DNA from: Escherichia coli
GTDB taxonomy: Bacteria; Pseudomonadota; Gammaproteobacteria; Enterobacterales; Enterobacteriaceae
Assembly (NCBI RefSeq): GCF_024223415.1
Contig: NZ_CP100508.1
Reading direction: 5' to 3' (one strand)
Length of the DNA stretch: 2,313 nucleotides
A program made the translations under genes and the position numbers. Of the stretch, positions 140 through 1,593 are shown piece by piece. Position 1 is the stretch's first letter. Each line of letters opens with the position of its first letter. A model generated the notes under the pieces. That model had not been told where the DNA came from, searched no databases, and was given only the letters and a program-made list of their open reading frames with translations.

Positions 140-491
140 TCTGTAAGCGTTTTTCGCGCCTTCCATGCCCTGACGGGCATTTAGACCCCGTTTCGTGCGT
201 CTGGGAGGCTCTGAGCGCGTTTAACAGATGACCAGCGACTCGATCGCCTGAGATCAAATCGGGATCATCAACGATATGCGAGAGGTGGCACCGCTCGCCG
301 CAGCCCCAGCGACCGAGCCGCCAGGCTCGCGAGTGGGCGAGGAAGCGGAAGAGAACCGGAAGCTACATTGAGCACGCACGCTCAATATTAAAATTGTCAC
401 TTCGTAAATAGAGATTATGCCTCGTGCTTGTGGATACATTTAAAAATATAAGATATCCGAATTAGGCTACATACGGGCTGATCGCCAATGT

Positions 492-557
492 TGTAACGTG
501 TAGAAGATACACCTGTAACGTGTACAGGATACACCTGTAACGTGTGGGCGGTATTCG
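492..557. repeat. Iteron array: 22-bp direct repeats, two near-identical units plus one degenerate unit
   Basis: Unit 1 at 492-513 TGTAACGTGTAGAAGATACACC and unit 2 at 514-535 TGTAACGTGTACAGGATACACC are head-to-tail and 20/22 identical. Unit 3 at 536-557 TGTAACGTGTGGGCGGTATTCG keeps only the first 10 bp. The array ends about 80 bp upstream of the rep start codon. Confidence 0.8.
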
Positions 558-568
558 CGTAATCTATA

Positions 569-629
569 TTGAGTGACATTTTGTTTTTTGGGCATTATAT
601 TGTTTGTCACCTTTATAAAGTGACAAAGG
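569..629 (+). promoter_or_regulatory. Candidate rep promoter, operator-like inverted repeat and RBS
   Basis: Candidate -35 GTGACA at 573-578, 17-nt spacer, -10 TATATT at 596-601 (alternative: TTGAGT 569-574 with CATTAT 593-598). Perfect 8-bp inverted repeat TTTGTCAC (603-610) / GTGACAAA (620-627) with a 9-nt spacer, placed at the predicted transcript start and abutting the Shine-Dalgarno AAAGG (625-629). No transcription data; positions are from consensus matching only. Confidence 0.35.
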
Positions 630-636
630 CGATAAA

Positions 637-1134
637 ATGAACATTACTGAAAGAACGGATAGCAAGAAAAAAGTTTTAAGACAAAATATTACTGAGGTTA
701 TAGATAGAGAAACTGGAAACGTAACACAAGAAATAACCGATATAACAGTTCAATTTCCACAAGAACCTGCGTATGTGAAAATTTATATTGATAATTTATG
801 TGCTGTCACAAAAGCACCTGATTCTCTAAAAGATGTTTTATTTTTAATTCTTAGGAAATTGGATTATGACGGATATATTGCATTATCAACTAGATACCGT
901 AAGGAGATCTGTAAATTATTGGGAATAAAAGACGGAACATTACGTAACAGATTGTATTCATTATCAAAAATGGGGATTATTGCTAGTTGTGGCGGTAATG
1001 AATATCAGGCAAACCCTAATTTATTTGCTCGTGGTGAATGGAAAAAAATAATTGAACAGCGTCGCGAGTTTGAAATGAGAATTAAATATTCACCTAACGG
1101 TGAAACTATTATAACAACCGAAGAAATAAAATAA
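637..1134 (+). CDS. Putative plasmid replication initiator, small single winged-helix protein, RepL-like (165 aa)
   Basis: Intact ATG(637)..TAA(1132-1134) ORF from the six-frame track. AAAGG Shine-Dalgarno at 625-629, 7 nt before the ATG. Central segment DVLFLILRKLDYDGYIALSTRYRKEICKLLGIKDGTLRNRLYSLSKMGII reads as a winged helix-turn-helix. Overall size and layout (YVKIYI hydrophobic block, HTH, C-terminal NPNLFARGEWKK) resemble the RepL family (Pfam PF05732) as I recall it; this is from memory, not a search. Lies directly downstream of 22-bp tandem iterons. AT-rich codon usage matches the surrounding module. Confidence 0.7.
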   Translation: MNITERTDSKKKVLRQNITEVIDRETGNVTQEITDITVQFPQEPAYVKIYIDNLCAVTKAPDSLKDVLFLILRKLDYDGYIALSTRYRKEICKLLGIKDGTLRNRLYSLSKMGIIASCGGNEYQANPNLFARGEWKKIIEQRREFEMRIKYSPNGETIITTEEIK

Positions 1135-1143
1135 TGCGCACCT

Positions 1144-1173
1144 AAATAAGGTCTTTTTAAAAAGACCTTATTT
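1144..1173. terminator. Candidate bidirectional intrinsic terminator between convergent rep and RHH genes (perfect 30-bp palindrome)
   Basis: AAATAAGGTCTTTTT (1144-1158) is the exact reverse complement of AAAAAGACCTTATTT (1159-1173). It starts 10 bp after the rep stop codon and overlaps the RHH gene stop codon (1168-1170). The hairpin is AU-rich with a weak U-tract, so termination efficiency is uncertain. Confidence 0.5.
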
Positions 1174-1593
1174 GAATAAATCCGAACCTGGATATTTATT
1201 TTTATGTAGCCTTTTTATTATTTTTATTTCATCCTTTATTAAATCCATTTCATTATATATATCAGAAATTCGCTTCGTTACTATTTTCATTTCATCGCAA
1301 AGTAAAATTATTTTATGCATCACCTCGAGGTACTCTTTATCCTTCGGCCGCTTTCCCTTATCAAATAATTTTTTCTGCATCCGACCAAGTCGGATTAATT
1401 CATATAAATACCTGGAAGGTACGCGCTGTTTTATTTCATTATTTAAACTTGCCGTCCTGATATATTCTGAAATTGTCAGTCCTTCGTTCTTCGCTCGCCG
1501 TCTGATTTCGCTTGCAAGTCTGTTATTTACTCTAAGGGTGATAACCTTAGTTCTCTGCCGTACTTCTGAACCACTACGTTTATTTTTAGCCAT
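1168..1593 (-). CDS. Ribbon-helix-helix domain protein, MobC/MbeC-like relaxosome accessory protein or CopG-like plasmid regulator (141 aa from ATG at 1593; the track ORF 1168..1692 uses an upstream GTG)
   Basis: Minus-strand ORF ending in TAA (complement of 1168-1170). N-terminal KVITLRVNNRLASEIRRRAKNEGLTISEYIRTASLN matches the RHH pattern (beta-strand, helix, G, helix with S.SEYIR) typical of MobC/MbeC/CopG proteins. C-terminal half is K/E-rich and helical. Start at ATG 1593 preferred: GGAGAG Shine-Dalgarno lies 8 nt upstream on the minus strand (complement of 1602-1607), whereas the 33-codon extension to GTG 1692 is GC-richer than the gene body and has no properly spaced RBS. Confidence 0.65.
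   Translation of the reverse strand: MAKNKRSGSEVRQRTKVITLRVNNRLASEIRRRAKNEGLTISEYIRTASLNNEIKQRVPSRYLYELIRLGRMQKKLFDKGKRPKDKEYLEVMHKIILLCDEMKIVTKRISDIYNEMDLIKDEIKIIKRLHKNKYPGSDLFK

Follow-up and report, generated by a model that had tools for sequence, protein, structure and literature searches.

Candidate Rep-binding operator dyads in the control region of a RepL-family rep gene from a 2.3-kb cryptic plasmid of Escherichia coli

Introduction

The principle by which a plasmid initiator represses its own gene via an iteron-related inverted repeat is a textbook one. In the systems of pSC101 RepA, pPS10 RepA, and R6K pi, iterons are combined with an inverted-repeat operator derived from them, and the initiator represses its own gene. 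These classical initiators are of the Rep_3 type with two winged-helix domains; their monomers bind the iterons, and their dimers bind the operator. The F plasmid has tandem iterons of ~22 bp upstream of rep and an inverted repeat made of a partial iteron at the promoter and leader, and its initiator is self-repressing, the RepE dimers binding to inverted repeats in the stretch that separates repE from the promoter (PMC13028717).

A second group of described systems is formed by the pHW126-like plasmids (pHW126, pIGRK, and pIGMS31), small plasmids of enterobacteria in which four 20-bp repeats are arranged at a 22-bp period and whose Rep proteins have been called distantly related to RepL by their authors (PMC6854812; bioRxiv 10.1101/2022.12.05.519187). 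The RepR and RepR' proteins of pIGRK bind inverted or direct repeats located beside the 22-bp-period repeats and repress a very strong rep promoter (PMC6854812). The RepM protein of pIGMS31 likewise binds inverted or direct repeats beside its 22-bp-period repeats and represses a very strong rep promoter (bioRxiv 10.1101/2022.12.05.519187). The pSN2-type RepL plasmids of Firmicutes are regarded as rolling-circle replicons, and a 2017 review stated that no copy-number control had been identified in them (PMC5703833). We did not find the iteron-plus-operator layout described for pSN2-type RepL plasmids in the accessible literature.

Small RepL plasmids typed as Col(MG828) abound in E. coli, Klebsiella, and Salmonella. 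Our literature search with the terms pKL1, MG828, and RepL found no study of the plasmid type analysed here. The control region of this plasmid probably represents a familiar type of control element, here with an initiator from the RepL family, which has received little study. As in F, ~22-bp tandem iterons lie upstream of rep, and inverted repeats resembling them are found at the predicted promoter and leader. As in the pHW126 group, short inverted repeats that share the sequence of the iterons stand directly before a gene for a winged-helix Rep (one or two such repeats in that group). Meanwhile, the pHW126-like Reps are longer (~30 kDa in the case of pIGRK RepR), pIGRK makes a second in-frame Rep, and these plasmids are further equipped with a conserved region (CR), an ssi element, and relaxases of the MOBV or MobK type, whereas our plasmid has only a MobA accessory protein. 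With the pSN2-type plasmids it shares the initiator family (PF05732), the similar Rep size of ~18 kDa, and the HTH. In contrast to classical iteron plasmids, our plasmid has a RepL-family initiator of 165 aa with a single winged-helix domain, and the candidate operator dyads are two.

Materials and Methods

The relatives were gathered by a tblastn search with Rep against a plasmid collection, by a scan of metagenomes for the iteron pattern, and by a protein search with contig look-ups. The metagenome scan returned 53 loci; only 10 of them encode a relative of Rep, and the others are unrelated repeats. The chance expectations were estimated using dinucleotide shuffles of the 266-bp control region. 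A strict motif-sharing test recorded whether a 5-mer repeat arm from the last 70 nt recurs exactly upstream.

Results

The Plasmid and Its Rep Protein

The window, i.e., the whole stretch of DNA analysed, is a complete circular cryptic plasmid of E. coli, 2313 bp in length, of the pPK8275-2.3kb type. The pPK8275-2.3kb plasmid and about 18 other records match it over the full length at 96-99.7% identity, and these records are typed as Col(MG828). The plasmid has two genes, one coding for Rep and the other for a NikA/MobA-like ribbon-helix-helix (RHH) protein. A relaxase gene is absent, and MOB-suite classified the plasmid as non-mobilizable.

637-1134, plus strand: rep, coding for an initiator of the RepL family (165 aa, one winged-helix domain), which is proposed to bind O1, O2, and the iterons
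1171-1593, minus strand: mobA, coding for the NikA/MobA-like RHH protein, an accessory protein without a relaxase partner on the plasmid

The assignment of Rep to the RepL family was examined by several methods. The Pfam RepL model (PF05732) matched it marginally, at 21.7 bits against a cut-off of 20.3; there was no Rep_3 match and a single winged-helix hit. The hhalign comparison of the Rep family profile with pSN2 RepL gave a probability of 95% (E = 1.7e-8), the tblastn search with Rep reached the RepL proteins of Bacillus and Priestia, and the RefSeq (PGAP) name of the protein is RepL. The AlphaFold2 model contains one winged-helix core (residues 51-125) with high pLDDT and low-confidence beta hairpins on both sides of it. 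A Rep_3 initiator with two winged-helix domains was considered and rejected, given the RepL match in Pfam and the one winged-helix core of the model. In the Foldseek search of the PDB, the hits were all generic dimeric winged-helix regulators without significance (E > 0.01), and there was no solved RepL relative among them on which DNA contacts could be modelled. The hhalign comparison with pHW126 Rep, for which the template was an OCR-recovered sequence, gave a non-significant probability of 3.3% (E = 0.013) with a collinear alignment over the winged-helix region. As each chain is modelled with one winged-helix domain and the candidate sites are dyads, Rep probably binds as a dimer.

Inverted Repeats in the Control Region of rep

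The features found upstream of rep are as follows.

394-408, plus strand: isolated half-site, TTGTCAC and the following 8 nt; 13 of these 15 positions agree with the inverse of 612-626 (repeat search)
492-557, plus strand: iterons, three 22-bp repeats, TGTAACGTGTAGAAGATACACC and variants of it (repeat search), kept in the relatives
558-578, no strand: candidate operator dyad O1, CGTAAT (558-563)-N9-GTGACA (573-578) (repeat search and dyad scans)
573-601, plus strand: predicted rep promoter, -35 hexamer GTGACA (573-578), 17-bp spacer, -10 hexamer TATATT (596-601)
603-627, no strand: candidate operator dyad O2, core TGTCAC (605-610)-N9-GTGACA (620-625), reaching from the predicted +1 region to the Shine-Dalgarno (SD) sequence
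626-629, plus strand: SD sequence AAGG, overlapped by the right arm of O2, 7 nt before the ATG at 637

The preliminary description had placed an inverted repeat with perfect 8-bp arms between the rep promoter and the ribosome-binding site, and this was borne out in all coordinates. The arms TTTGTCAC (603-610) and GTGACAAA (620-627) flank the 9-bp spacer CTTTATAAA (611-619), the repeat spans the predicted +1 region, and its right arm overlaps the AAGG of the SD sequence. It should be noted that the outer T/A pairs lengthen the 6-bp core to 8-bp arms in this allele. As position 604 is C (TCTGTCAC) in 7/7 near-identical metagenomic relatives, the conserved perfect core is 6 bp long, namely TGTCAC-N9-GTGACA, and the 8-bp perfection is allele-specific. 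The GTGACA at 573-578, proposed earlier as the -35 hexamer, is indeed part of the best, and the only strong, sigma-70 match found by the promoter scan of the window (GTGACA-17-TATATT, 10 of 12 positions). The positions of both hexamers are kept in the relatives. The left arm of O2 begins 2 bp past the -10 hexamer, and in the relatives a purine-rich SD sequence stands directly 3' of the right arm.

O1 has the same form as O2 and lies 47 bp apart from it. The left arm of O1 is the truncated head of a fourth iteron located at exactly 536+22, that is, in the 22-bp register of the array, while the -35 hexamer GTGACA doubles as its right arm. The iteron head TGTAAC agrees with the operator half-site at five of the six positions, and this holds for TGTCAC as well as for CGTAAT. 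The preliminary description saw the copy at the -35 hexamer but missed both its pairing with the iteron head and the kinship between the half-sites and the iterons. The four hexamer copies that it counted, among them the TTGTCAC at 394-400, are where it put them; a fifth TGTCAC is present inside rep (804-809). In its general form, TGTMAY/RTKACA, the half-site occurs seven times in the region 371-636, once in the rep open reading frame, and not at all in the remaining 1549 bp of the window. Tandem iterons by rep, inverted repeats over the predicted promoter and leader, and the likeness of the arms to the iterons are thereby all found in the window.

The isolated half-site at 394-408 is situated at the left edge of an AT-rich stretch, 97 bp before the first iteron. 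It is kept at -244 in L062, whose Rep is 81% identical, but not in the more distant lineages. This half-site may be an auxiliary site for Rep.

Of the shuffles of the control region, 7.6% had a perfect repeat of 8 bp whose spacer measured 0-15 bp. At least one hexamer reached four copies in 13.7% of the shuffles, whereas this particular hexamer did so in 0/5000. On the evidence of the window alone, the O2 repeat is therefore suggestive and only marginally beyond chance, so that the case for it rests on its conservation across the relatives. In the exact-match sharing test, the observed sharing was reached by no more than 3.1% of the shuffles in 9 of the 18 loci. The test was not significant for the window and five other close-clade loci, because the arms differ there from the iteron heads by one base (TGTCAC versus TGTAAC in the window).

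Conservation of the Dyads among Rep Lineages

The Rep proteins of the relatives are 81%, 64%, and 54-63% identical to that of the window, with a more distant set at 23-51%. All eight lineages with 54-81% identity have both dyads in the form TGTMAY-N9/10-RTKACA, located about 80 and 32 bp before the ATG (the ranges are -75 to -85 for O1 and -29 to -41 for O2). The TGT and ACA are invariant in these dyads, while the spacers and flanks drift. In O2, the arms have a mean pairwise identity of 82.5%, compared with 53% for the spacer and 42% for the flanks; for O1, it is 87.5% in the arms versus 61% in the spacer, and the flanks of the two sites range from 42 to 54%, values that describe homologous lineages and do not amount to independent replication.

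The arms vary independently of each other within TGT(A/C)A(C/T), giving such pairs as TGTAAT/GTGACA, TGTCAC/ATTACA, and TGTAAC/ATTACA. In three lineages (L064, L067, and L068), the operator arms match the iteron heads exactly. In L065, the heads of the iterons and the four operator arms have all shifted in concert, to TGTACC/GGTACA. L066 departs from this pattern: its iterons have TGTACC, its operator has TGTCAC, and the dyad lies further upstream (-72); the co-variation of operator and iterons is therefore not universal.

The putative recognition helix of Rep contains T-L-R-N-R in all eight dyad-bearing lineages. It is kept in the lineages with TGTNNC half-sites, that of the Aeromonas Rep included, and differs in those with other half-sites. 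The Aeromonas plasmid L002, whose Rep is 35% identical, has T-V-R-N-R at this place; the repeat unit of its origin is TTTGTCAC-N7-GTGACAAA, and a TGTCAC-containing dyad precedes its ribosome-binding site. This comparison shows that the positions and half-sites of the candidate operators O1 and O2 are conserved and that the putative sites co-vary with Rep and the iterons.

The same layout with other motifs was found in distant RepL plasmids, whose iterons are 22 bp long and whose own iteron motif recurs as an inverted repeat located between the promoter and the ATG. The motifs shared by the iterons and this repeat are listed below, together with the findings in Bacillus, Priestia, and Scytonema.

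L002 (Aeromonas): TGTCAC
L004/L005: AGTACT
L006: GGTATCA
L007: TACCG
L008: GTAGCTCAAAA
L070: GTACTC
L071: ATACTC
L073 (Bacillus), 368-566: 22-bp iterons and, ahead of the ribosome-binding site, a perfect palindrome of 19 bp, the motif sharing being only loose
L074 (Priestia), 389-552: 21-22-bp iterons followed by a palindrome, with ATTCCT present both in the 22-bp units and near the ribosome-binding site
L075 (Scytonema), 354-509: 21-22-bp iterons followed by a palindrome before the ribosome-binding site with the iteron motif CTACTC

As judged from the sequences of the Bacillus, Priestia, and Scytonema RepL plasmids, the iteron-plus-palindrome layout is family-wide across phyla.

In L070 (401-712), two divergent RepL genes flank a long perfect palindrome of GAGTAC-containing repeats. 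The arrangement is either an assembly artefact of the inverted-dimer type or a genuine head-to-head replicon.

Discussion

The dyads O1 and O2 are probably the binding sites through which the RepL-family Rep represses its own gene; we put the probability of this reading at roughly 0.7. We infer Rep binding, the dimeric stoichiometry, the start of transcription, and the repression itself, in the following form. A Rep dimer would bind each dyad, each subunit reading one TGTMAY half-site, the same sequence as the iteron head. The occupancy of O1, which is fused in register to the iteron array, would cover the -35 hexamer, while that of O2 would cover the region of the transcription start and reach the ribosome-binding site. 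With either site occupied, the binding of RNA polymerase or its escape from the promoter would be blocked. A rise in the concentration of Rep, and hence in the copy number, would in this way lower the synthesis of Rep. Because O1 is fused to the iteron array, the occupancy of the origin and repression would be physically coupled. The preliminary description had considered autorepression either by Rep or by the RHH protein; the operator layout that it proposed is now tied to Rep by comparative conservation, while the alternative with the RHH protein fails on co-occurrence.

The sites might also serve Rep mainly at the origin, in an extended Rep-iteron complex or in handcuffing, with any effect on rep transcription being incidental. 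The position of O1 in the 22-bp register of the array speaks for this, as do the isolated half-site at 394-408 on the far side of the AT-rich stretch and the minimal origin of pIGMS31, which includes IR1 (bioRxiv 10.1101/2022.12.05.519187). We nevertheless consider a mainly origin-related role unlikely, since in every lineage the sites are placed around the -35 hexamer and around the +1/SD region, which repression needs and an origin does not, and those analogues that were studied by experiment act in repression. The two roles are compatible with each other. A repeat acting as the operator of the MobA/NikA-like RHH protein (1171-1593, minus strand), which would then repress rep, deserves hardly any credence. 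RHH proteins commonly bind short repeats, and such a gene is present on the same plasmid; however, L006, L007, and L008 encode a MobA 86-96% identical to that of the window and a Rep only ~23% identical, and they lack the TGTMAY dyads, their repeats matching their own iterons. Conversely, both dyads are kept in L001 (2334 bp), which has rep and a MobV relaxase but no RHH gene, and the same TGTCAC half-site is found in L002, which has a MobV relaxase and no annotated RHH gene in the 1.6 kb examined. A different, 8-bp perfect repeat, TGTATTCG-N8-CGAATACA, stands upstream of mobA (1668-1691, ~75-100 bp from its start) and is a more plausible candidate for the RHH target or for a part of oriT than the rep repeat. 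The sites follow Rep and not the RHH gene, and on this co-occurrence the RHH protein was rejected as the repressor.

A hairpin formed by the leader RNA of rep, which would mask the SD sequence or affect mRNA stability, was weighed because the right arm overlaps the SD sequence and the RNA 603-645 folds at -8.3 kcal/mol (z = -2.8). The transcript, however, probably starts inside the left arm of O2, the -10 hexamer ending at 601, and the fold from 608 has only -2.5 kcal/mol (z = -0.6). In addition, the relatives have no stable fold (z about 0 against shuffles), and the arm changes, TGTAAT/GTGACA, TGTCAC/ATTACA, and TGTAAC/ATTACA, are not compensatory; the hairpin is thus extremely improbable. 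The Rfam search of the window (E <= 1) gave only a spurious snoRNA match elsewhere and no family at the repeat. A palindrome arisen by chance in AT-rich DNA finds some backing in the shuffles described above, with their 7.6% for an 8-bp repeat and 13.7% for some hexamer at four copies, but the position and the half-sites have been kept while the flanks diverged to about 42-54% identity. A site for a host factor such as CRP or LexA belongs to the same group of readings, which we regard as very improbable. A CRP site has the form TGTGA-N6-TCACA, and a LexA box the form CTGT-N8-ACAG. The arms TGTCAC...GTGACA have TCAC before GTGA and a spacing of N9, in disagreement with a CRP site, and a LexA site was rejected on the order and spacing of the half-sites by inspection of the sequence.

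Repression by Rep through O1 and O2 leaves room for a further idea about how the protein distinguishes its sites. The spacing of the half-sites is about N8 inside the 22-bp iterons versus N9 in O1 and O2, and in several relatives the origin repeats are dyads themselves, so that the monomer/dimer switch of classical iteron plasmids may not apply. We tentatively suggest, at a good deal less than even odds, that RepL proteins, having a single winged-helix domain, bind as dimers in the same way to the repeats of the origin and to the operator of rep, so that only the quality of the half-sites and 1 bp of spacing would distinguish the two kinds of site. If this were true, it would provide simple occupancy-based control of copy number for a family usually filed as rolling-circle, with a range extending from Enterobacteria to Bacillus and cyanobacteria.

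The TGTMAY half-site, the two candidate operators, and the iteron array make up a testable model of copy-number control. This model bears on the incompatibility among the many co-resident plasmids of 2-3 kb as well as on the divergence of specificity, as the changes in the recognition helix accompany those in the half-sites. It also adds to the evidence that RepL-type replicons, traditionally regarded as rolling-circle, have the regulatory anatomy of iteron plasmids.

Other Features of the Plasmid

Inside rep, a predicted antisense promoter, GTGACA-18-TAAATT (780-809, minus strand), has the fifth TGTCAC (804-809) as its -35 hexamer. Such a promoter could give a counter-transcript across the 5' end of rep; it shows no conservation outside the close clade, and for this reason it probably arose by chance. 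A perfect palindrome with 15-bp arms, AAATAAGGTCTTTTT and AAAAAGACCTTATTT, occupies 1144-1173 between the convergent stop codons of rep (1134) and mobA (1168-1170). It is probably a bidirectional terminator and was absent from the output of a simple terminator scan of the window.

A GC-rich block (2051-2313 and 1-370) has 57-61% GC versus 31-38% elsewhere in the window and contains a 13-bp perfect repeat (2161-2173 and 2212-2224). The window is matched partially by 885 plasmid records, and its rep region by only 20. Much of the non-rep backbone, including the GC-rich block, appears to account for the 885 partial matches, and the difference between the two numbers points to a backbone of modular build on which various RepL replicons are exchanged.

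A copy 96% identical to the window was deposited as Actinobacillus pleuropneumoniae (NZ_CP031857.1); this points to a wide host range or else to contamination. The entire 2.3-kb plasmid is also present as an insertion in a 79.8-kb plasmid of E. coli (NZ_KR905387.1, 18116-20445).
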